From: Candidatus Magasanikiibacteriota bacterium | GTDB lineage: Bacteria; Patescibacteriota; Patescibacteriia; Magasanikbacterales; GWA2-37-8 | Length of the DNA: 64,000 nucleotides | NCBI GenBank assembly: GCA_016182085.1 | Contig: JACOYB010000009.1 | Span: forward strand, 1,393 to 65,392 | Direction: 5' to 3' | Shown: positions 1 to 56,802 of the stretch, piece by piece | How positions within the stretch are numbered: position 1 is the stretch's first letter | How the letters are laid out: each line of letters opens with the position of its first letter | Notes under the pieces: model-generated | What the model was told of the DNA's origin: nothing | Databases searched by the model: none | Seen by the model: only the letters and a program-made list of their open reading frames with translations | Program-made: the position numbers and the translations under genes

Positions 1-692
1 GCAGCACTGATAATTTTGATGAAGTAGTAAAGGAATGTCTGTTGCTTACCGATGGCGATTGTATTGGCGCAGGCAGTGTATTGTCTGTAATATCCCAGCC
101 AAACAGTGGTGCTCCCGTGGCCCGCAATAAAGGTTTTGCTATGTCCAAAGGTGAGTATGTAATTTTTTGGGATGCAGACACCTTGGCTCATCCGCAGATG
201 CTGCAAAAAATGTTTGCTTATTTACAAAAACATCCGGACGCAAGTTATGCCTATAGCCAATTTAAATTTGGCTGGAAAACCATAAAAAGCCGGCATTTTA
301 ATGCGGATAAATTAAAACAAGTAAATTATATAGACATCACCTCGCTTATCCGCCGTTCCACCCTCAATTGTCATCCTGAACAAAGTGAAGGATCTCTGTC
401 CAGTAACGCTGTCATTCCGACCGCAGTGGAGGAATCCCTTTCGCGCACGTCTTGTCCTTTCGACGTACACTTAAAACGTTTCCAAGATTGGGATCTGTGG
501 CTCACAATGTTAGAACAAGGTAAAACCGGAGTTTTTATCCCCGAAGTCCTCTATGAAAAAGTTGTAGGCAGCAGAGAAGGTATAAGCACATGGTTGCCAA
601 GCTTCATGTATCAATTGCCATGGAAGACCAAGCAGGTTAAAAAATACGAAGAAGCCAAACAAATTATTATAAAAAAACACCATCTGTCCTAA
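1..692 (+). CDS. Family 2 glycosyltransferase, 5' end truncated by window edge; carries an in-frame hairpin-repeat insertion at about 366-466
   Basis: Reading frame is open from nt 3. GT2-like motifs are present (STDNFDEVVKE, DGDCIGAG, ...VIFWDADT...). The segment 'NCHPEQSEGSLSSNAVIPTAVEESLSRTSCPFDVH' is encoded by the dispersed 'gtcatcctga…gaaggatc' repeat. Confidence 0.7.
   Translation, partial: STDNFDEVVKECLLLTDGDCIGAGSVLSVISQPNSGAPVARNKGFAMSKGEYVIFWDADTLAHPQMLQKMFAYLQKHPDASYAYSQFKFGWKTIKSRHFNADKLKQVNYIDITSLIRRSTLNCHPEQSEGSLSSNAVIPTAVEESLSRTSCPFDVHLKRFQDWDLWLTMLEQGKTGVFIPEVLYEKVVGSREGISTWLPSFMYQLPWKTKQVKKYEEAKQIIIKKHHLS
366..466. repeat. Dispersed hairpin repeat (gtcatcctga…gaaggatctctgtc family), two tandem arms, inserted in-frame in the GT2 gene
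   Basis: Sequence 'ttgtcatcctgaacaaagtgaaggatctctgtcc…gtcattccgaccgcagtggaggaatcccttt' matches the other copies listed below. Confidence 0.7.
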
Positions 693-699
693 CTGTCAT

Positions 700-740
700 C
701 CCGAGCGAGTCCGTAGCCGACGAGGGATCTATACCTATTA
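700..740. repeat. Solo copy of the hairpin repeat (ctgtcatcccgagcgagtccgtagccgacgagggatct)
   Basis: Same core 'tgtcatccYga…gggatc' immediately after the GT2 stop codon. Confidence 0.6.
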
Positions 741-1263: not shown

Positions 1264-1450
1264 ACTGTCATCCGCTCGTTAACTGTCATCCTGATCTAGA
1301 GTTCTGGGGAGAAGGATCTCTGTCCGTTAATTCCCCGCTTGTCCCGATTCTCGAGAATCGAGGATCCTCGACCGCGGTCGGGAGGCGTCTGGGTAGGGGT
1401 GGGTTGGTCTGTTTAGTTGTCATCCCGACCGCAGTGGAGGGATCCCTTAA
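1264..1450. repeat. Compound cluster of the hairpin repeats plus G+C-rich palindromes
   Basis: 'ctgtcatccgctcgtt', 'actgtcatcctgatctagagttctggggagaaggatctctgtccgtt', the perfect palindrome 'cgattctcgagaatcg', 'cctcgaccgcggtcgggagg', and 'ttgtcatcccgaccgcagtggagggatccctt'. Confidence 0.6.
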
Positions 1451-3824: not shown

Positions 3825-4381
3825 TATGACCATTAATCTTTCAGCAAAATTAGCAAAGGTTATACTGTGTTTAAATCCATTCGCGAGATTAAAAGTGATG
3901 TGCAGAGGGTATAGCGAAGATTTGGATAATTTTACTGAGCTTGTCTGGGATGATGATAAGTATTTGGATTTTTACGACAAAGAAACATACCCACAACTTC
4001 AGTTGGGGTTAATATAGGAATATGAAGTTAAAAAACTTTATCGAATATTTAAAAATAATCCAAAAAATACATGGCGATAACGCAGAAGTTGTTATGGCTG
4101 ATTTTATTCCTGTCGTTGAGCCAGTTTTATTAAATTCCCATACAGGGAAACCATGTGTTGTGGTAACTGATGAAAAGTAAGATAGGGTATGAAGTATAAG
4201 AAAATTCAATTAGAATACGACAAAATATATTCTTATTTCAAAAGAACCTGCGAGCAGTTTGATTTGTTAGAATGGAACGGAAAAAGATTGGATGTCTGGA
4301 GTAATGATAAGATTATCGAAACTTATAAGTATAAAGATTTAAAAGTTATTAATATTTTTTAAATTTTGTTCTGAAATAATT

Positions 4382-5164
4382 ATGTCCACAGCAAAAGAAA
4401 TAAAATGGTTGCTAAGCACAGGTATATTATTTGCGATTTTATTTTTTAGCGGATATTTATATCTAACAATATATTTTATTGATCTAGCTGTTCCAATAAG
4501 TGATTTATCAATAGCGGAGGTGGCTCTCATGGGCTTTATTCCTTCCATGCTTTCAATTCTAACAGCGCTTATTACATTCTTATTTTTTATCCTTATTTCT
4601 GCCATAATTTTCCGCATTTTTAAAACAAAAGTAAAGGCAAAAATTAAAGAAAGATTCAAAAAAAATTATTTCAATTTTCTAATAATTGGAATTTGTCTTT
4701 TACCCTTTACAATTTATTTTTGGGCATCTTTTAATAATACACGTGGTTATCCATATAATTATATCCCAATATCAAAAAGGACAAGTCGACCAATTGTTTC
4801 AGTTTCTTATAAATCATCTTTAGTAAGTAATTACGCGCCACTAGTCGTGACAAACCAGATTGACAAGGGTACTAGCACAAAAAGCAATAGTCAGGAGGAG
4901 GTTAAAAATTATGATGCAGTATTTTTTAAGGACATTTTTATATTATACTTTGAAAGTAAAGACAGCTATTTTTTTAAAGCTAGAAAAGACTTGTTCTATA
5001 CTAGAACATCTATAACCTTTACTGAAAGTGGGAATACGACAATAATTCCAGTTGGCTTTTATAATGATATTAATAGTGGCTTTATTGTAATTCCCAAGAG
5101 TAATATTCTAGCATTAATTTATTTAGAAAACGATTTGGAAAAAGATTTTGATTTTAAAAAATAA
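4382..5164 (+). CDS. Hypothetical membrane protein (N-terminal TM helices)
   Basis: Hydrophobic N-terminal half; no recognisable motif. Confidence 0.4.
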   Translation: MSTAKEIKWLLSTGILFAILFFSGYLYLTIYFIDLAVPISDLSIAEVALMGFIPSMLSILTALITFLFFILISAIIFRIFKTKVKAKIKERFKKNYFNFLIIGICLLPFTIYFWASFNNTRGYPYNYIPISKRTSRPIVSVSYKSSLVSNYAPLVVTNQIDKGTSTKSNSQEEVKNYDAVFFKDIFILYFESKDSYFFKARKDLFYTRTSITFTESGNTTIIPVGFYNDINSGFIVIPKSNILALIYLENDLEKDFDFKK

Positions 5165-6633: not shown

Positions 6634-6687
6634 GATAGATTAGTTGTATAATTAATAAAGAGCGTTTTATTAATCTAATTTGTTTAT

Positions 6688-6978
6688 ATGGATACCAAGC
6701 ATCTAAAAGACAAGCTGGCTTCCGGGGAAGATGTAATGATAATTGATGTTCGAGAGCATGATGAATACGAAAAAGGCGAAAAAATGGACGAAGCTACCAA
6801 TATACCGATGGGTCAGATGTTTATTGAAGCTTCGCAAGGAAAATTGCCAAAAGATAAAAAAATTATCACAGTTTGCAAAAGTGGAACTAGATGCGAAATT
6901 GTGGCGCGTGAATTGAAAGCTAAGGGCTATGATATTGAACACTTAGAAGGCGGAATGGATGCTTGGAAAGCAGCTTAG
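6688..6978 (+). CDS. Rhodanese-like single-domain sulfurtransferase
   Basis: IIDVREHDEY…active-site loop 'CKSGTRC'…GGMDAWKAA. Confidence 0.75.
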   Translation: MDTKHLKDKLASGEDVMIIDVREHDEYEKGEKMDEATNIPMGQMFIEASQGKLPKDKKIITVCKSGTRCEIVARELKAKGYDIEHLEGGMDAWKAA

Positions 6979-6981
6979 TGT

Positions 6982-7449
6982 ATGGCTCTTAAAACAAACC
7001 ATGTTGTCATACCGTTGATTACAATTGCTACGATCAGTCTCGGTAGTCTGGTTACTTCTTTGGGTATGAATTGGTATAGCACAATTAAACTTCCGGCGTT
7101 TACGCCCCCCGGCAGCTTTATTGGCGCAGTTTGGACAGTTTTATTTATTTTGGCTACACTTTCCGCTCTTATAGTTTGGAATAAAGCTTGGAGAAAAAGA
7201 AAAAATATAATTGGCATTGCTTTTGTTTTAAACATTTTGCTTAATGTTGGTTGGAGTGTTTTATTCTTCGGGCTGCATTTAATTGGTCCGGCAATTTATG
7301 AATCGGCTTTGCTGGGCGTGTCGGTTTTAGTGTTAATAATTCTAATTTGGCCTGTTTCTAAATTAGCTGTTTGGCTTTTGGTGCCTTACATGGTTTGGGT
7401 CTCTTTCGCTACATTTTTAACTTATACCATTTGGTCTCTTAATAAGTAA
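6982..7449 (+). CDS. tspO: TspO/MBR family (tryptophan-rich sensory protein)
   Basis: Five TM helices; WY..L.KP.FTPP; W-rich; 155 aa. Confidence 0.6.
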   Translation: MALKTNHVVIPLITIATISLGSLVTSLGMNWYSTIKLPAFTPPGSFIGAVWTVLFILATLSALIVWNKAWRKRKNIIGIAFVLNILLNVGWSVLFFGLHLIGPAIYESALLGVSVLVLIILIWPVSKLAVWLLVPYMVWVSFATFLTYTIWSLNK

Positions 7450-7451
7450 CT

Positions 7452-7844
7452 ATGCAAATTCCCGAGAGTGAATTAATAATCACGTTTGCTAGATCATCCG
7501 GAGCGGGCGGGCAAAATGTAAACAAAACTTCCACCAAGGCTATTATTCATTGGCCGGTAGGGAAGTCTTTTGTGTTATCTGAAGAACAAAAACAAAGAAT
7601 AAGAATTGTGCTGGCTAATAGAATAAATAGTGAAGATGAAATGGTGGTAATGTCGGAAGAGGAACGTTCTCAACCACAGAATCGAGAATTGGCAATTGCT
7701 AGGCTGCAATCATTGGTAGATGATGCTTTACACGTGCCAAAAGTACGTCGAGCCACTAAGCCAACCAGATCTTCCAAAATAAAACGCCTTGAATCAAAAA
7801 AGATACGTTCTCAGATAAAAGAGGGGCGACGAAATGTTGAATAA
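7452..7844 (+). CDS. arfB: Alternative ribosome-rescue factor ArfB (peptidyl-tRNA hydrolase, GGQ motif)
   Basis: 'ARSSGAGGQNVNKTSTKA' GGQ motif plus a basic C-terminal tail; about 130 aa. Confidence 0.7.
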   Translation: MQIPESELIITFARSSGAGGQNVNKTSTKAIIHWPVGKSFVLSEEQKQRIRIVLANRINSEDEMVVMSEEERSQPQNRELAIARLQSLVDDALHVPKVRRATKPTRSSKIKRLESKKIRSQIKEGRRNVE

Positions 7845-7851
7845 TTACCCA

Positions 7852-8222
7852 ATTGTCATCCTGAGCAGAGCGAAGGATCTCTGTCCGTTATATTATGCCA
7901 AATCACAATTATTATGTTTATATAATAGCCAGTGTAAGTTTCGTATTATATATAGGAGTAACAAATGACCTTATTAGAAGAGTTGAAGAACATAAGGATG
8001 GAATTGTTGATGGTTTTACTAAAAAGTATAAATGTAAAAAGTTAGTTTATTATGAAAGTTTTTTTCATGTGGAGGATGCTCTTAAAAGAGAAAAAGAATT
8101 AAAAGGTTGGAAAAGATTTAGAAAAGTTAATTTAATAAATATTGGTAATTCGCGGTGGGTAGATTTGTATGATCAACTTACGAGTTGAGACAGAGATCCT
8201 TCACTGCGTTCAGGATGACAAA
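7852..8222. mobile_element. Candidate minimal element: GIY-YIG gene bracketed by 33-bp terminal inverted repeats
   Basis: Left arm at 7853-7885 is 'ttgtcatcctgagcagagcgaaggatctctgtc'. Reverse complement of 8189-8221 is 'ttgtcatcctgaacgcagtgaaggatctctgtc'. Identity is 26/33, and all differences fall in the central 7 nt. The ORF 7895..8188 fills the interior with gaps of 9 nt or less. Confidence 0.5.
7895..8188 (+). CDS. GIY-YIG nuclease family protein (UPF0213/YhbQ-like)
   Basis: YYVYIIAS…LYIGVTNDLIRRVEEH is the GIY-YIG signature. Confidence 0.65.
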   Translation: MPNHNYYVYIIASVSFVLYIGVTNDLIRRVEEHKDGIVDGFTKKYKCKKLVYYESFFHVEDALKREKELKGWKRFRKVNLINIGNSRWVDLYDQLTS

Positions 8223-8227
8223 CTACT

Positions 8228-8470
8228 ATGTATTATGTATATATCCTGGAATGCGTAGACAAAACATTGTATACTGGTATAGCTACGGATTTAGCGCGCA
8301 GGGTAAAAGAACATAATACCTCCAAATTGGCGGCCAAATATACCCGCGGTCGCCGGCCGGTAAAAATTGTTTATACAAAGAGGTTTCGCAATCGGTCTAA
8401 TGCTTCTAAGGCCGAAGCCAGGATAAAGAAAATGACGAGAAAAGAGAAGTTGAAGTTAAGCATAGAATAA
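8228..8470 (+). CDS. GIY-YIG nuclease family protein (second tandem copy)
   Basis: MYYVYILEC…LYTGIATDLARRVKEH. Confidence 0.7.
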   Translation: MYYVYILECVDKTLYTGIATDLARRVKEHNTSKLAAKYTRGRRPVKIVYTKRFRNRSNASKAEARIKKMTRKEKLKLSIE

Positions 8471-8546
8471 ATTTGTCATTCCCGCCGGAGCGGGAATCCA
8501 GACAATTGTATTGGATACTGGATTCCCATTGCGATGGGAATGACAA
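8471..8546. repeat. Hairpin repeat, subfamily B ('gtcattccc…gggaatccag.caattgt.tggattccc…gggaatgacaa')
   Basis: Near-identical architecture at 55165-55232. Overlaps the annotated 5' end of the helicase ORF. Confidence 0.65.
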
Positions 8547-8575
8547 CCGAGAGAATAAATAATTTCTTAAACTGT

Positions 8576-10234
8576 ATGACTCAAGAGCAAGCGCTGGACA
8601 TACTTAAAACCGGCGCTAATGTTTTTTTAACCGGCGAACCTGGAGCGGGTAAGACGCATACTATAAACGAGTATGCGCGTTATTTGCGTGCCCGCAACAT
8701 AGAGCCATCTATTACCGCTTCTACCGGTATTGCGGCTACGCATTTGGGCGGAATGACCATTCATTCTTGGAGCGGTATTGGCATACGTAAATATTTGGAT
8801 GGGTATGAATTAGATAAAATAAGCTCTACTGAATATCTTGCCAAACGCATTCGCCGGGCGAAAGTATTAGTAATAGACGAAGTGTCCATGTTATCTCCCG
8901 AAACACTGGATATGGCTGACGCGGTGTGCCGCAACATACGTCAAAATGGCGATGCGTTTGGCGGTTTGCAAATTATTTTTGTCGGTGATTTTTTTCAGTT
9001 GCCGCCGGTTGTAAAAAATGAGAATAATTCACAATTACAAACTTCGCTACTTCAGAATAATAAACCCAGGTTTGCCTACGCTTCATCTGCTTGGCAAAGA
9101 GCCAAGCCTGTAGTTTGTTATCTTACCGAACAGCACCGTCAGGATGATGATATATTTTTACAAATTCTTTCGGCGGTTCGGGCTAATACTGTTAATAATG
9201 ATCACTTGTCTGAAATTGAAAAAAGAAAAGTACGCGATGAAAATTTCGCCAGTAAAGCTGTAAAATTATATACCCATAATATAGATGTGGATCGCACCAA
9301 TGATGCCATGCTTGCCACGGTTGTAAACAAACCAATGACGTTTGAAATGACAAGTAAAGGTTCGTCGGCGCTGGTGGCCACTCTTCAAAAAGGTTGTTTG
9401 TCGCCATCTAGTTTAATACTAAAAGTTGGAGCCAAAGTTATGTTTACAAAAAATAATCCTAAAGAAGGCTTTGTAAATGGAACATTGGGAATTGTGGAAG
9501 GGTTTGAACGATATATGAATTTGCCAATCATTCGCACTCATGACGGCCGGCAAATTATGGTAGAAAAAATGGAGTGGAGTGTGCAAGAAAACGGTAAGGT
9601 GCGGGCCGAGATCTCGCAGATTCCATTACGTTTAGCCTGGGCTATAACCGTGCATAAAAGCCAAGGAATGAGCCTGGAAGAAGCGGTAATGGACCTAAGC
9701 GACGTATTTGAGTTTGGGCAGGGATATGTGGCTTTGTCGCGCGTACGGCGCCTAGCCGGCCTGTATTTATTGGGTTGGAATGAGCGGGCGTTTCAGGTGC
9801 ATCCGGAAGTACTAGAAAAAGACAAAGATTTTAGGGTTAGTTCGGAGGCAAATGTAAATGTGTTTTCCGGTATTCCCAAAGAAGAACTAAGTAAGATGCA
9901 TAAAAATTTTGTTAAAGCGTGTGGGGGAGATGAAGTTGATTTGAGTTTGCAAACAGGTGAAGACGATGCACAATACGAACCTATTACTCGCCAAAATTAC
10001 GCAGAAGGATTAGGAAAGAAAAAGAAACCAAAAGCAAAAGGGTCTGGTTACGCAAAAATCAGGGAAAAGCATCCAAATGCGTATAAATCATGGAGTGCAG
10101 AGCAAGACGAAGAATTGAAACAGTTTTTTGCGAGCGGCGTACCCATTGAACAGCTCGCGGAAACATTTGGACGTAAAGAAGGCGCTATATCTATGCGGTT
10201 GATTAAATTGGGACTTATGGAAGGGGAGTTATAA
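8576..10234 (+). CDS. PIF1/RecD-like P-loop DNA helicase with a C-terminal HTH-like tail
   Basis: Walker A 'GEPGAGKTH'. 'IIFVGDFFQLPPV' is the PIF1 signature. C-terminal 'WSAEQDEELKQFFASGVPIEQLAETFGRKEGAISMRLIKLGL' resembles a sigma-70 region-4 HTH. The upstream in-frame extension to 8534 is encoded by the repeat. Confidence 0.7.
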   Translation: MTQEQALDILKTGANVFLTGEPGAGKTHTINEYARYLRARNIEPSITASTGIAATHLGGMTIHSWSGIGIRKYLDGYELDKISSTEYLAKRIRRAKVLVIDEVSMLSPETLDMADAVCRNIRQNGDAFGGLQIIFVGDFFQLPPVVKNENNSQLQTSLLQNNKPRFAYASSAWQRAKPVVCYLTEQHRQDDDIFLQILSAVRANTVNNDHLSEIEKRKVRDENFASKAVKLYTHNIDVDRTNDAMLATVVNKPMTFEMTSKGSSALVATLQKGCLSPSSLILKVGAKVMFTKNNPKEGFVNGTLGIVEGFERYMNLPIIRTHDGRQIMVEKMEWSVQENGKVRAEISQIPLRLAWAITVHKSQGMSLEEAVMDLSDVFEFGQGYVALSRVRRLAGLYLLGWNERAFQVHPEVLEKDKDFRVSSEANVNVFSGIPKEELSKMHKNFVKACGGDEVDLSLQTGEDDAQYEPITRQNYAEGLGKKKKPKAKGSGYAKIREKHPNAYKSWSAEQDEELKQFFASGVPIEQLAETFGRKEGAISMRLIKLGLMEGEL

Positions 10235-25013: not shown

Positions 25014-26330
25014 ATGAATAACCCAGAAAATCCTCAAGAATTATTAGAATGCTTTGACGAACAAGGTGTTATTATCGAGCCTCATACCCGTACGGAAGTG
25101 CATGCTAAGCCTTTACAGTATTGGCACGGTGTCGTCAATGTTTGGCTTGTAAATAGCGCTGGTGAGTTGCTATGCTCAAAACGTGCCGAAAATTTGTCTG
25201 GCAATCCGGGGAAATGGCAAACTTATTTTGGCGGACATATAAAAGCCGGGAAAAGTTTTAAAGAAAATGCGGTGTTGGAATTAAATGAAGAGGCGGGTGT
25301 AGAGATTGATCAAAATAACTTATTTTTAATTGCAAAAGGTACGAACGATGCGGATAAGCATTATTTTGAAAGTTATGCGTATTTATTTAATGGTTCAGTT
25401 AATGATTTGAAATTTAATGATGGAGAAGTAACTGAAGCCAGGTGGTATACAATGGGCAATTATTGGGCAGAAAGAAATAAAAATTTAGAAAATTGGTGCA
25501 ATGGCTGTAAACCTGAGAATCAGGAATTGATTAAAAATTGGTTAGCCTTAAGTACACAAATTTTAGGTATAAATGTTAGCAATATATCTAAAAAAAGTGC
25601 TTTGGAAAAAGTAGTTGAGTTTTTAAAATCGGATAATCAATATAAAATATTTACACCAAATCCGGAAATGGTAGTAAAAGCACAAAAAGACGAATATTTT
25701 AAACAAGTTTTAAATAGCGGTGATTTGAATTTGTGTGATGGTATGGGCCTGCAGATTTTTACTGGAATAAAACGAATTCCAGGTGTAGATTTTATGTTAG
25801 AAGTTTGTAAGTTAGTGGCGGAGCAGGGGAGAGGAGTCTATTTATTGGGTTCTGGAAATGACAAGGTGGTACAAGGTGCTTGCCAAGAGTTAAGCAAAAA
25901 ATTTCCTAATTTAAAAATATCTGGGTATAACAAAGGGCCGGTATTGCAAGAGGTTTGTCATTCTGAGCAGAGCGAAGAATCCCTCTTGTCCGAACGAAAG
26001 GGATCCTTCACGTCCGTTCAGGATGACAGCGTTATTGTAAATGAGATTAATCAATCTGGAGCGGCAGTTTTATTTGTCGCCTTTGGCATGGGTAAGCAAG
26101 AAAAATGGATTTATGAAAATTTAAGCAAAATGCCGAATGTAAAAGTGGCTATGGGAGTGGGTGGAGCATTTGATTTTATATCTGGAAAAATAAACCGCGC
26201 CCCTTTATTTTTACGTAAGTCTGGGTTAGAATGGGTCTATCGTTTGATCCGGGAACCAAAGCGAATCGGCAGGATTTTTAACGCGACTATTAAATTTTGC
26301 TACCTGGTATTTAAGAGAAAAATATTATAA
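25014..26330 (+). CDS. Fusion: N-terminal Nudix-like domain (degenerate box) plus C-terminal WecB/TagA/CpsF (GT26) glycosyltransferase; carries an in-frame hairpin-repeat insertion
   Basis: Nudix-like 'GGHIKAGKSFKENAVLELNEEAGV' (REx2EE reduced to LEx2EE). GT26 motifs 'NPEMVV…CDGMGL…', 'LLGSGNDKV' and 'GVGGAFDFISGKINRAP…WVYRLIREPKR'. Repeat-encoded segment 'CHSEQSEESLLSERKGSFTSVQDDS' (nt 25955-26032). Confidence 0.6.
   Translation: MNNPENPQELLECFDEQGVIIEPHTRTEVHAKPLQYWHGVVNVWLVNSAGELLCSKRAENLSGNPGKWQTYFGGHIKAGKSFKENAVLELNEEAGVEIDQNNLFLIAKGTNDADKHYFESYAYLFNGSVNDLKFNDGEVTEARWYTMGNYWAERNKNLENWCNGCKPENQELIKNWLALSTQILGINVSNISKKSALEKVVEFLKSDNQYKIFTPNPEMVVKAQKDEYFKQVLNSGDLNLCDGMGLQIFTGIKRIPGVDFMLEVCKLVAEQGRGVYLLGSGNDKVVQGACQELSKKFPNLKISGYNKGPVLQEVCHSEQSEESLLSERKGSFTSVQDDSVIVNEINQSGAAVLFVAFGMGKQEKWIYENLSKMPNVKVAMGVGGAFDFISGKINRAPLFLRKSGLEWVYRLIREPKRIGRIFNATIKFCYLVFKRKIL
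25955..26032. repeat. Hairpin repeat (back-to-back arms) inserted in-frame in the Nudix-GT26 gene
   Basis: 'tgtcattctgagcagagcgaagaatccctcttgtccgaacgaaagggatccttcacgtccgttcaggatgacag'. Confidence 0.7.
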
Positions 26331-27310: not shown

Positions 27311-28828
27311 ATGATCAAAACCCGTTTTGCACCCAGCCCCACCGGATATTTACATGTAGGAGGTCTACGCACCGCTTTGTATTCATATTTATTTGCCAAA
27401 AAACATGGTGGTAAATTTTTGTTGCGCATAGAAGATACGGATAGAGAAAGGTATGTGGCCGACGGCGTGGCAAATATTTTAAAATCACTGTATTGGGCAA
27501 GTGTTGTGCCCGATGAGGGTGTCATCCTGAGTGAAGCGAAGGATCCCTCTCGTTCGGATAAAAGGGATTCTTCGGCAAAGCCTCAGAATGACAATTTGCG
27601 AATTACTCAAAAGGGTGAAAATGGACCATATACACAATCAGAACGTTTAGATATATATAAAGAATACGCACAAAAGTTACTTGATGCTGGACATGCATAT
27701 TATTGTTTTTGCAGCTCCGAAAGATTAGAAAAATTACGAGCCGATCAACAGGCCAAAAAAATGCCAACGGGCTACGATGGTCTTTGCGCAAAACTTGACC
27801 CAACAGAGTCTAAACAAAAAGCAGAGGCAGGAGAAAAACATGTAATGAGACTTAAAATGGACAAGCACGGCGAAACTGTTTTTAATGATTTGATTCGCGG
27901 AGAAGTGCGTTTTAAAAATGAATTGGTAGACGATCAGGTACTAATAAAATCAGATGGTTTTCCTACTTATCATTTTGCGGTGGTGGTAGATGATCATTTA
28001 ATGGGTATTACCCATATTATCCGCGGCGAAGAATGGATAAGCAGCGTGCCAAAGCATGCTCAACTATATAAATACTTTGGTTGGGAAATTCCCGAGATGG
28101 CTCACTTGCCACTATTGCTTAACCCAGATAAATCCAAGCTCAGCAAACGCCAAGGTGATGTAGCTGTAGAAGATTATATGAAAAAAGGTTATTTACCAGA
28201 AGCGCTGGTAAATTTTGTGGCATTTTTGGGTTGGAATCCGGGCACAGAAAAAGAAATGTATACAATGGAAGAATTAGTTAAAGATTTTGATTTAGCCAAA
28301 GTCGGTAAAACCGGCGGGGTTTTTAATATTGAAAAATTAGATTGGTATAACAAACAATATATTAAAAATTTATCCAACGCAGAGTTGGTAGAAAAAGCCA
28401 TGCCTTGGCTGGAAGAAGCGGGGGTAGGCGGCCGTCCAATTCTAGAGAAAGCCGTGTCATTGGAAAGAGAAAGAATTACAATTTTGTCCGAATTGCCGGA
28501 AGCAATTAAATTTGTTTTTGAGCTGCCAGATTATAAAGCTGACACACTAGTCTGGAAAAAAAGTTCAAACGAAGAGGTAAAAAATATTTTGCCAAAACTT
28601 ATAGAATTTTTTGATACAGTTGATGAAAACGATTGGGATAAACAAGTTTTAGAAGAAAAAACCAAAATTTGGATAGCTGAGAAAGGATTCTCTGTTGGTT
28701 CTGTACTCTGGCCAATGCGCGTGGCATTATCTGGACAAGAAAACTCCCCGGGTCCTTTTGAAATTGCCGAAGTTTTAGCCAAAAAACAAACAATTACAAG
28801 ACTTCAAATTGCCTTAGAAAAGTTATAG
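27311..28828 (+). CDS. gltX: Glutamyl-tRNA synthetase with an in-frame hairpin-repeat insertion (nt 27518-27596)
   Basis: 'RFAPSPTGYLHVGGLRTAL' HIGH region and 'KLSKR' KMSKS variant. The insert 'VILSEAKDPSRSDKRDSSAKPQNDN' lies between the conserved '…DEG' and 'PY.QS.R' positions. Confidence 0.85.
   Translation: MIKTRFAPSPTGYLHVGGLRTALYSYLFAKKHGGKFLLRIEDTDRERYVADGVANILKSLYWASVVPDEGVILSEAKDPSRSDKRDSSAKPQNDNLRITQKGENGPYTQSERLDIYKEYAQKLLDAGHAYYCFCSSERLEKLRADQQAKKMPTGYDGLCAKLDPTESKQKAEAGEKHVMRLKMDKHGETVFNDLIRGEVRFKNELVDDQVLIKSDGFPTYHFAVVVDDHLMGITHIIRGEEWISSVPKHAQLYKYFGWEIPEMAHLPLLLNPDKSKLSKRQGDVAVEDYMKKGYLPEALVNFVAFLGWNPGTEKEMYTMEELVKDFDLAKVGKTGGVFNIEKLDWYNKQYIKNLSNAELVEKAMPWLEEAGVGGRPILEKAVSLERERITILSELPEAIKFVFELPDYKADTLVWKKSSNEEVKNILPKLIEFFDTVDENDWDKQVLEEKTKIWIAEKGFSVGSVLWPMRVALSGQENSPGPFEIAEVLAKKQTITRLQIALEKL
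27518..27596. repeat. Hairpin repeat (back-to-back arms) inside gltX
   Basis: 'gtcatcctgagtgaagcgaaggatccctctcgttcggataaaagggattcttcggcaaagcctcagaatgacaa'. Confidence 0.7.
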
Positions 28829-55119: not shown

Positions 55120-55300
55120 TTTGTCATTGTGACTACAACCTTTTGGTCTACACGTTCCCGTAGTTGTCATTCCCATCGAAATGGGAATCCAGTCGACAAT
55201 TGTCTGGATTCCCGCTTTGGCGGGAATGACAATATATGGACAAAGATTCCTCACACAAGAGCCTGCCCTGAGCTTGTCGAATGGGTTCGGAATGACAGTG
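55120..55300. repeat. Cluster of hairpin repeats (subfamily B plus partial copies) between atpC and atpD
   Basis: 'gtcattcccatcgaaatgggaatccagtcgacaattgtctggattcccgctttggcgggaatgacaat', plus flanking 'ttgtcattg…' and '…ttcggaatgacag'. Confidence 0.65.
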
Positions 55301-56725: not shown

Positions 56726-56802
56726 TTGTCATCCTGAACGGAGTGAAGGATCTCTTTTGTTCGGACTGGAGGGATTCTTCGCAAAGCTTCAGAATGACAA
56801 TT
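56726..56802. repeat. Hairpin repeat (back-to-back arms) between atpD and atpG
   Basis: 'ttgtcatcctgaacggagtgaaggatctcttttgttcggactggagggattcttcgcaaagcttcagaatgacaa'. Confidence 0.7.

Follow-up and report, generated by a model that had tools for sequence, protein, structure and literature searches.

The DNA analysed in this study is a 64-kb stretch, referred to as the window, from a Candidatus Magasanikbacteria (Patescibacteria) genome, with a G+C content of 40.6%. At one locus in the window, a gene with an RF-1 domain (7452-7844) is followed by two small genes, g1 (7895-8188) and g2 (8228-8470), and then by a gene for a Pif1-type helicase. An initial annotation had described g1 and g2 as tandem GIY-YIG nuclease genes; both open reading frames (ORFs) exist, both match the Pfam GIY-YIG family PF01541 (E 1.4e-13 and 3e-17, respectively), and they are the only GIY-YIG ORFs found in the window by a six-frame search. 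As also annotated, g1 is flanked by two 33-nt repeat arms in inverted orientation (7853-7885 and 8189-8221), which are 88% complementary and have 303 nt between them; the left arm ends 9 nt before the g1 start codon and the right arm follows the g1 stop codon after 0 nt. This arm-gene-arm unit, referred to as the cassette, and the hairpin repeats related to its arms are the subject of the analysis.

On the side of g2 the measurements differ slightly from those given initially. The gap between the right arm and the ATG of g2 is 6 nt (ACTACT) rather than 5 nt or less, and the palindrome placed at 8471-8546 exists but occupies 8473-8546. From alignment with relatives, the true start of the Pif1 gene is at 8576, and the mechanical ORF call had put it inside the repeat, at 8534. 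The features of the locus are as follows, a doublet being a head-to-head pair of arms.

7853..7885, plus strand: left arm of the cassette, A-type, with a TTGTCAT tag pointing away from the gene, a hairpin, a tail C and the extension TCTCTGTC
7853..7885, plus strand: stem of the left arm, ATCCT-GA-GC, loop AGA, stem GC-GA-AGGAT
7895..8188, plus strand: g1, a 97-aa single-domain GIY-YIG protein assigned by sequence to the Ssn family; predicted site-specific single-stranded DNA (ssDNA) endonuclease
8189..8221, minus strand: right arm of the cassette, A-type, tag away from the gene, starting at the first base after the g1 stop
8228..8470, plus strand: g2, an 80-aa UPF0213/YhbQ-like GIY-YIG protein; conserved resident neighbour outside the repeat system
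8464..8472, plus strand: first copy of a 9-bp direct repeat, AGAATAAAT; second copy at 8552-8560
8473..8546, no single strand: B-type doublet, tags outermost, arms 29 nt long that are 83% complementary with 16 nt between them; plus arm GTCATTCCCGC-CGGA-GCGGGAATCCAG, minus arm GTCATTCCCAT-CGCA-ATGGGAATCCAG, near-canonical Neisseria-type NTS hairpins

g1, its flanking hairpins and the Ssn nucleases

In Neisseria meningitidis, SsnA has 94 aa and consists of a single GIY-YIG domain (Chenal et al. 2025, Nat Commun 16:2388, PMC11893778). It binds the NTS repeat CGTCATTCCCGCGMAVGCGGGAATCYRG only as ssDNA, and only that strand, and its cut site lies a few nt upstream of the repeat (PMC11893778). Of its homologues across bacteria, 71% have at least one related motif beside them and 42% have one on both sides (PMC11893778). 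The initial annotation had known of no described bacterial system of this kind; the Ssn nuclease/Ssn-related-motif (SRM) system was published in 2025 (PMC11893778), and repeats of this sort had likewise been described, as a CGTC/TGTC-tagged superfamily of repetitive extragenic palindromic (REP) sequences (PMC3733652).

The homology criterion for SsnA in that paper is blastp E < 1e-10, and the comparison was made here with the gonococcal orthologue, N. gonorrhoeae ORF L186:1189-1473, from a chromosome filed among plasmid records. The family is further characterised by cd10448 (GIY-YIG_unchar_3) as its leading conserved-domain assignment. The gonococcal orthologue has 94 aa, carries Y6, Y17, and E64 as published for the meningococcal SsnA, and lies amid NTS repeats. 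g1 is 44% identical to it over 86 aa (E 3e-25), and a profile of g1 homologues aligns with it at an hhalign probability of 99.9. In addition, g1 is 46% identical to a homologue that has the exact published NTS consensus on both sides. The Pfam GIY-YIG domain spans residues 5-78 of the 97 residues of g1, the AlphaFold2 (AF2) model has the GIY-YIG fold with a pLDDT of 92, and in 37 homologues the catalytic residues Y9, Y19, R29, H33, E66, and N85 show no variation or almost none. Neither g1 nor g2 has a model in NCBIfam; the PDB has no Ssn structure, and g1 reaches only 6e-6 and 0.022 against 1ywl and 1zg2. Overall, it appears from these comparisons that g1 and its hairpins constitute an Ssn nuclease/hairpin-repeat system, a gene-repeat pairing that is already known.

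The association between g1-type genes and tagged hairpins was measured with a tag-plus-stem detector at 80 loci of g1 homologues (47-64% identical) from species-representative genomes of many phyla; most of the comparison sequences in this study are metagenome-assembled. Plus-strand arms occur at 3.48 per kb within 150 nt upstream of the genes and minus-strand arms at 4.92 per kb within 100 nt downstream, against a background of 0.073 arms per kb per strand at more than 500 nt from the gene. Tagged hairpins are 50-65x enriched beside g1 homologues and point outward on both sides; the gene-repeat link proposed in the initial annotation is real for g1, and it is general. The canonical layout of plus arm, gene, and minus arm is present in 30 of 75 loci, the figure of Chenal et al. 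being 42%. Left and right arms are 82% similar within a locus and 57% similar between loci, and none of 2000 permutations reaches this; the within- versus between-locus comparison was chosen because a correlation of protein distance with arm distance would arise from linkage alone. The published SRM pattern, HGTCWYN(0-2)YYVSBRHN(0-5)WNVSBRGN(0-2)RNCYNB (PMC11893778), matches arms beside the g1 homologue at 11 other loci.

At the ssnA locus of N. gonorrhoeae (L186 1050-1660), the nearest NTS upstream is on the minus strand and the one right after the stop is on the plus strand, so that both point inward. Seventeen g1 homologues were found on IMG/VR contigs, four of them with arms near the gene, and phage carriage as the main route of spread was dropped on account of these small numbers. 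Transfer across phyla had been considered from a 64%-identical homologue in a contig labelled Candidatus Udaeobacter (L006, DATION010000002.1, 234 kb), and it was likewise dropped when the GltX encoded on that contig proved 75% identical to that of the window. By its sequence, L006 is probably a Patescibacteria contig mis-binned into a Verrucomicrobiota metagenome-assembled genome.

The order of RF-1 gene, arm, g1, arm, g2, and Pif1 gene is common to the window and two related loci, L003 and L005, where g1 is 88% and 80% identical, respectively. Between these three, the ratio of nonsynonymous to synonymous substitution (dN/dS) of g1 is 0.09-0.12 at a dS of about 0.8, so g1 is under purifying selection once in place. 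The right arm is identical at 33 of 33 positions in L003 and at 32 of 33 in L005, with the synonymous sites of g1 differing at about 50%. In L005 and other homologues the ORF runs into the right arm (...DPSLRSG). Since the downstream arm often abuts or overlaps the stop codon, many database proteins carry the tails ...DPSLRSG and ...LRFAQDDK. Logan short-read contigs with g1 (L001, L002, and L004) stop no more than about 30 nt past its stop codon, which indicates that assemblies break at the right arm. L005 has two extra arms upstream of its left arm (3850-4000), one of A type and one of C type, and a 62-nt stretch with a partial arm between its right arm and g2 (4325-4385); in L005, arms accumulate beside the gene.

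The initial annotation had both genes bracketed by repeats, which holds for g1 but fails for g2. Against the solved UPF0213 members, g2 aligns over nearly its full length (PDB 1ywl, E 8.3e-17; 1zg2, E 1.4e-16), whereas against the gonococcal SsnA it reaches E 5e-8 at 31% identity, short of the E < 1e-10 used for Ssn proteins. Among g2 homologues sampled at 79 loci from metagenomes, canonical arms were found in 0 of 76 and any arm nearby in 3 of 79. g2 (80 aa) is highly conserved across Patescibacteria (70-83% identity), and genes of the two types are adjacent in this clade only. It appears that g2 is an unrelated, UPF0213/YhbQ-like resident gene in front of which the cassette landed.

Arms and doublets in the window

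The arms share a general plan, namely a (T/C)TGTCAT tag, a stem that starts with the AT of the tag, a loop, a complementary stem ending in AT, and a C. The A-type arms that flank g1 read GTC-ATCCT-GA-GC-AGA-GC-GA-AGGAT-C, with a stem of 5+2 bp interrupted by tandem G-A mismatches and a loop of 3 nt. In 25 unique A arms from 11 sources, the pair 5-21 is Watson-Crick in all 25, with three pair types, where 10 would be expected under column independence; two other variable stem positions are paired in 24 and 21 of the 25. In the left-arm orthologues of L003 and L005 there are compensatory changes, with ATCCT/AGGAT replaced by ATTCT/AGAAT and GC/GC by AC/GT. B-type arms have the form given above for the plus arm of the doublet beside g2, with an 8-bp stem, and for the B arms stable ssDNA hairpins are predicted, at -10.6 kcal/mol (z -5.1) and -6.5 kcal/mol (z -3.5). 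Arm pairs as wholes fold into long imperfect hairpins, the doublets being imperfect palindromes; for the whole B doublet at 8473-8546 the value is -21.3 kcal/mol (z -5.7).

There are 17 arms in the window, mostly in pairs of 77-79 bp with the conserved TTGTCAT ends outermost, and single arms lie at 370, 411, 695, 1285, and 1419. For the motif TTGTCATYCY, dinucleotide-preserving shuffles give an expectation of 0.52, and the window has 12 occurrences. The tag-plus-hairpin detector gives 19 matches, including the 17 true arms, where 200 mononucleotide shuffles give 4.4 on average and at most 9; an earlier version was discarded as no better than chance (55 matches against 53 in shuffles). All A pairs carry a CTCT(T)GTYCG extension that is also present beside g1. 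The solo copies listed in the initial annotation at 25955-26032, 27518-27596, and 56726-56802 are genuine inverted arm pairs, as is 55164-55232. Apart from the cassette locus, the arms are distributed as follows.

368..440, plus strand: A-type arm (370-394) and C-type arm (411-436) in the same orientation, in frame in the ORF 42-692 of a GT2 glycosyltransferase
693..731, plus strand: long-loop arm GTCATCCCGAGCGAGTCCGTAGCCGACGAGGGATC directly after the stop of ORF 42-692
1283..1447, plus strand: arm cluster of a long-loop A variant (1285-1318) and a C type (1419-1444), with a truncated tag upstream at 1266
25955..26032, no single strand: A-type doublet in frame in the WecG/TagA domain of ORF 25014-26330
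27518..27596, no single strand: A-type doublet in frame in gltX, translated ...EGV-ILSEAKDPSRSDKRDSSAKPQNDN-LRI...
55164..55232, no single strand: intergenic B-type doublet with NTS-like arms 55166-55189 (plus) and 55207-55230 (minus)
56726..56802, no single strand: intergenic A-type doublet, a long imperfect hairpin with an ssDNA fold of -12.5 kcal/mol (z -2.5)

A degenerate additional arm lies near 55289 on the minus strand. The arm at 693-731 is of the same type as those flanking the g1 homologue in L006. Upstream of the arm cluster at 1283-1447, a MazG-like ORF (919-1264) contains an in-frame TAA (1048-1050, EHF*WKN) at a place where Gln is usual in the family motif; this ORF may be a pseudogene, contain a sequencing error, or be read through. 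In Rfam, no family reaches its gathering threshold. The B-type pair (8457-8565) has weak sub-threshold matches to the Wolbachia small RNA (sRNA) WsnRNA46 (E 0.015) and to FtrB of Francisella, and these two sRNA families may themselves overlap Ssn-related repeats.

Filled and empty sites

At six related loci, the stop of the RF-1 gene is followed after 4-5 nt by the start of g2, with neither g1 nor an arm. Because these six loci are cleanly empty, a unit of about 375 bp bounded by the arms is present or absent as a whole. A comparison of empty and filled sites had been suggested with the initial annotation, which would have been contradicted by arms inserted independently in strains that lack the gene; such arms were not seen, and arms and gene are absent together at all six loci.

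In a tree of Pif1 proteins, the empty locus L094 is the sister of the filled L003 (199 of 200 bootstraps) and the window groups with L005 (182 of 200), while g1 itself is closer in the window to that of L003. Identities taken gene by gene along the locus are mosaic. By this tree and these identities, the history of the cassette is other than one gain and subsequent descent. The interval from a conserved 208-aa ORF to the RF-1 gene (6634-7451) holds rhodanese and TspO genes in the window, GSDH and TspO in L003, GSDH in L005, and nothing in L094. The cassette sits in a stretch prone to recombination.

The B doublet at 8473-8546 is absent in L003 and L005, where the stop of g2 abuts the start of the Pif1 gene, and it is a lineage-specific insertion. 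The apparent bracket around g2 is made up of the right arm of g1 upstream and this doublet downstream, so it is not one that g2 owns. Two copies of the 9-bp AGAATAAAT (8464-8472 and 8552-8560) flank the doublet plus 5 nt, and they may represent a target-site duplication. In the empty/filled comparisons of the cassette and of the gltX doublet, for which the initial annotation had suggested looking for target-site duplications, none comparable to this 9-bp repeat and none of constant length was seen.

The doublet in gltX (27311-28828) lies in the catalytic domain of glutamyl-tRNA synthetase and amounts to a net in-frame insertion of 57 nt relative to the empty alleles of the closest orthologues, L166 and L168. 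A more distant orthologue (P0254, L167) has nearly the same insert together with about 30 nt of shared downstream sequence, and P0270 and P0286 have different inserts at the same position. Either the position is a hot spot for insertions, or it is a loop in which they are tolerated. At the position of the doublet 25955-26032, the WecG orthologues of L166 and L168 have 18 aa fewer. The ORF 25014-26330 that carries this doublet is a NUDIX domain fused to a WecG/TagA glycosyltransferase, and L166 and L168 encode a stand-alone WecG of 240 aa.

In the doublet 25955-26032, the plus arm agrees in type with the left arm of the cassette and the minus arm with the right arm, and the two are in the same order as there. 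This order and the shared extension are as an internal deletion of the cassette would leave them. The initial annotation had proposed that solo copies are elements that lost their ORF, and the 78-bp pairs do look like extended arms fused head to head.

Interpretation and relation to known systems

The interpretation that quite probably accounts for these observations is that the region 7853-8221 is an Ssn cassette, in which g1 lies between two inverted copies of its own recognition element, a GTCAT-tagged hairpin with the tags outermost, that the cassette and its derivatives behave as insertions, and that they most likely spread through recombination or repair provoked by the nuclease or guided by the repeat, with g2 as a resident gene. 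By homology to the enzymes of Neisseria and Wolbachia, g1 would bind the arm only as ssDNA, and only the strand that reads 5'-GTCAT-hairpin-ATC. It would nick a few nt 5' of the tag, and therefore just outside the cassette or a pair, on either strand. The dispersed head-to-head pairs of 77-79 bp would derive from the cassette by deletion of the ORF. Cassette and pairs would have been inserted, and the gene would then have been kept at one locus under purifying selection, in the manner of the genes for REP-associated tyrosine transposases (RAYTs). Their spread would take place by homologous recombination or repair, provoked by the nuclease or guided by the repeat.

Several points weigh against this interpretation. 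The published SRM pattern has 0 matches in the window; it misses the arms there at the loop positions of the B arms and at the G-A-interrupted stem of the A arms, while the tag, the stem ends, and the tail fit. The single A-type arm has no predicted stable ssDNA hairpin (-2.8 kcal/mol, z about 0), and that its pairing appears to be maintained is a reading drawn from covariation. Binding and nicking of ssDNA by g1, including at A-type arms, are predictions drawn from the characterised relatives. The Neisseria repeats point inward, whereas those in the window and at most of the 80 loci point outward. The junctions of the cassette differ among the three filled genomes. Its presence and absence could reflect exact removal, more than one gain at the same site, or exchange of alleles by recombination, with either polarity. 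Finally, the counts of arms and GIY-YIG genes for the source genome are those of the 64-kb window.

One alternative, proposed in the initial annotation, is an autonomous mini-transposon, in which g1 acts as the transposase-like enzyme of the element: it would excise the arm-gene-arm unit, reinsert it and, in trans, mobilise the ORF-less 78-bp derivatives, the two forming a genuine pair of insertion sequence (IS) and miniature inverted-repeat transposable element. Terminal inverted repeats of 33 nt and nicks predicted immediately beyond these repeats would suit such an element, as would the clean empty sites, the constant co-presence or co-absence of arms and gene, and an empty locus beside a filled one, which is compatible with precise excision or site-specific reinsertion. 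The doublets retain the left/right order of the arms and the extension CTCTGTCCG, and the gltX position holds different inserts in different lineages. However, the only ORF between the arms encodes a 97-aa GIY-YIG domain, and no DDE, HUH, serine, or tyrosine transposase. GIY-YIG nucleases are hydrolytic and are not known to have strand-transfer or ligation activity. An inverted pair, moreover, presents only one arm in the cleavable orientation on each DNA strand, target-site duplication is inconsistent, and a single copy lies in the window. The same locus is occupied in three genomes with a dN/dS of about 0.1 and saturated dS, and homologous exchange would account at least equally well for the mosaic ancestry of the flanks. 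Of the original proposal, then, the empty sites and the joint presence of arms and gene have stood, but the transposase chemistry, a consistent target-site duplication, and a second copy in the window have not been found. Since rejoining of DNA is not a known activity of GIY-YIG enzymes, a given strand offers a single cleavable arm per pair, and no constant target duplication was seen, spread by nuclease-provoked or repeat-guided recombination or repair would be more likely than classical transposition, and an autonomous transposon is rather unlikely.

A second alternative is that the nuclease and its hairpins have been domesticated and serve the cell, the spread of the repeats being a by-product. 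They could trim or restrict incoming ssDNA in natural transformation, or steer recombination and repair, as has been proposed for Neisseria. SsnA does modulate transformation in N. meningitidis (PMC11893778), and strong purifying selection on g1, its long retention at one locus, an invariant right arm, and surroundings that are mosaic in ancestry and variable in gene content could all be read in this way. On the other hand, nothing in the window links g1 to competence genes, empty relatives manage without the cassette, and in-frame inserts in gltX and in the transferase genes look costly rather than useful. A host function of this kind can be entertained only tentatively.

It is very improbable that the arms act at the level of RNA, as transcript terminators, stabilisers, or a regulatory hairpin of g1, with the tandem G-A mismatches as an RNA motif. 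The pairing of the arms covaries, a terminator-like match (7865-7884) overlaps the left arm, and arms inside ORFs are transcribed; but no Rfam family reaches threshold, promoter and terminator matches are at least as frequent in shuffles, and arms lie on either strand, some of them within coding sequence, in which a terminator would be lethal. SsnA, furthermore, does not bind RNA (PMC11893778). Coincidence, that is, a common intergenic repeat beside two unrelated small nuclease genes, is the case for g2, with its bracket of a g1 right arm and a lineage-specific insertion, but for g1 it is refuted by the 50-65x enrichment, the strict orientation, and the co-variation of left and right arms over 80 loci in many phyla, and as an account of the locus it is hardly credible.

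A further and rather speculative suggestion is that Ssn cassettes and ORF-less doublets form a class of mobile elements driven by a bare GIY-YIG ssDNA nuclease and not by a known transposase. Nicks beside the outward tags would allow host replication or recombination to copy, remove, or exchange the unit without a scar.

Under the Ssn interpretation, the system is extended to the candidate phyla radiation, with a type of arm that the published search pattern misses. Since that pattern misses A-type arms, surveys based on it undercount the family. In the locus and its relatives, the cassette and two kinds of doublet are each available as naturally empty and filled alleles, including in-frame inserts in an essential aminoacyl-tRNA synthetase. 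With these alleles one could test the idea that Ssn nucleases disseminate their own repeats, in the way supposed for RAYTs and the REP doublets known as REPINs. If true, nuclease-driven mobility would explain both the empty site nested beside filled ones and the recurrent in-frame colonisation of the same gltX loop. It would also answer the long-standing puzzle of what spreads the CGTC-tagged REPs, dRS3, and some of the Rickettsia palindromic elements.

Among the known systems, the likeness to UPF0213/YhbQ proteins (1ywl, 1zg2) is that of g2 only (E about 1e-16), and g2 has no association with repeats. Elements of the IS200/IS605 group are likewise small, with hairpin ends read on ssDNA and possible scar-free loss; they differ in having two unlike hairpins on the same strand, a Y1 HUH transposase, and a tetra- or pentanucleotide target, none of which was seen here. 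As with the genes of homing endonucleases (I-TevI and Seg), a GIY-YIG gene is present or absent at one site with signs of flank exchange. Homing enzymes, however, have a separate DNA-binding domain and cut double-stranded empty alleles, whereas g1 is a bare catalytic domain, with relatives that act on ssDNA only, beside a repeat carried by the element itself.

Palindromic elements in protein-coding genes of Rickettsia were reportedly described by Ogata et al. in 2000. The in-frame repeats in gltX, the WecG gene, and the GT2 gene resemble them in leaving the reading frame unbroken, and differ in host phylum and repeat sequence. The two may be the same phenomenon, RPE-4 and RPE-6 having been classed as CGTC REPs (PMC3733652).

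The CGTC/TGTC-tagged REPs have stems starting with AT and a CCA tail, are mostly dimers, and include some units inside genes (Di Nocera et al. 2013, PMC3733652). They are defined by an unpaired (C/T)GTC tag, an 8-9-bp stem, a 4-5-nt loop, and a 3-nt tail near CCA, and their class includes dRS3 of Neisseria as well as RPE-4 and RPE-6 of Rickettsia, with no dedicated enzyme found (PMC3733652). The B arms 8475-8498, 8521-8544, 55166-55189, and 55207-55230 show all of these characters, with a TGTC tag, an 8-bp ATTCCCGC/ATTCCCAT stem, a 4-nt loop, a CCA tail, and arrangement as dimers. The A arms share the tag, the AT start, and the dimer arrangement, with an interrupted stem and a loop of 3 nt. 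Common to the two sets of repeats is that most are dimers of two unlike units and that some lie inside genes, but the A and C types of the window, with interrupted stems or long loops, fall outside the four defined families.

The likeness to the REP/RAYT relationship noted in the initial annotation is apt, and Chenal et al. drew the same parallel (PMC11893778). As in REPtrons and REPINs, a single-copy, vertically kept nuclease gene is flanked by its own tagged hairpins in inverted orientation, the dispersed mobile unit is an inverted doublet, and recognition as ssDNA is to be expected. RAYTs, in contrast, are HUH/Y1 transposases that form covalent intermediates and act on GTAG-tagged REPs, whereas g1 would be a hydrolytic GIY-YIG enzyme of an unrelated fold and its tag is GTCAT.

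The closest system is Ssn/NTS itself. Both have a single-domain GIY-YIG protein of about 95 aa, g1 being 44% identical to the gonococcal orthologue, and hairpin repeats that flank its gene on either side and are dispersed in the genome, with GTCAT as the 5' tag and ATC as the 3' tail; the B arms of the window, in addition, share stem and flanks with the Neisseria NTS. The differences are the patescibacterial host, the A-type arms beside g1 that escape the published pattern, the outward arms here as opposed to the inward ones at the gonococcal locus, and an activity of g1 that is predicted from its sequence. Chenal et al. likened the layout of repeat, gene, and repeat to an insertion sequence and to REP/RAYT, with mobility hypothesised but not shown (PMC11893778). 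Empty and filled sites are shown here, and this comparative evidence for mobility of the cassette and of the 78-bp pairs is new.

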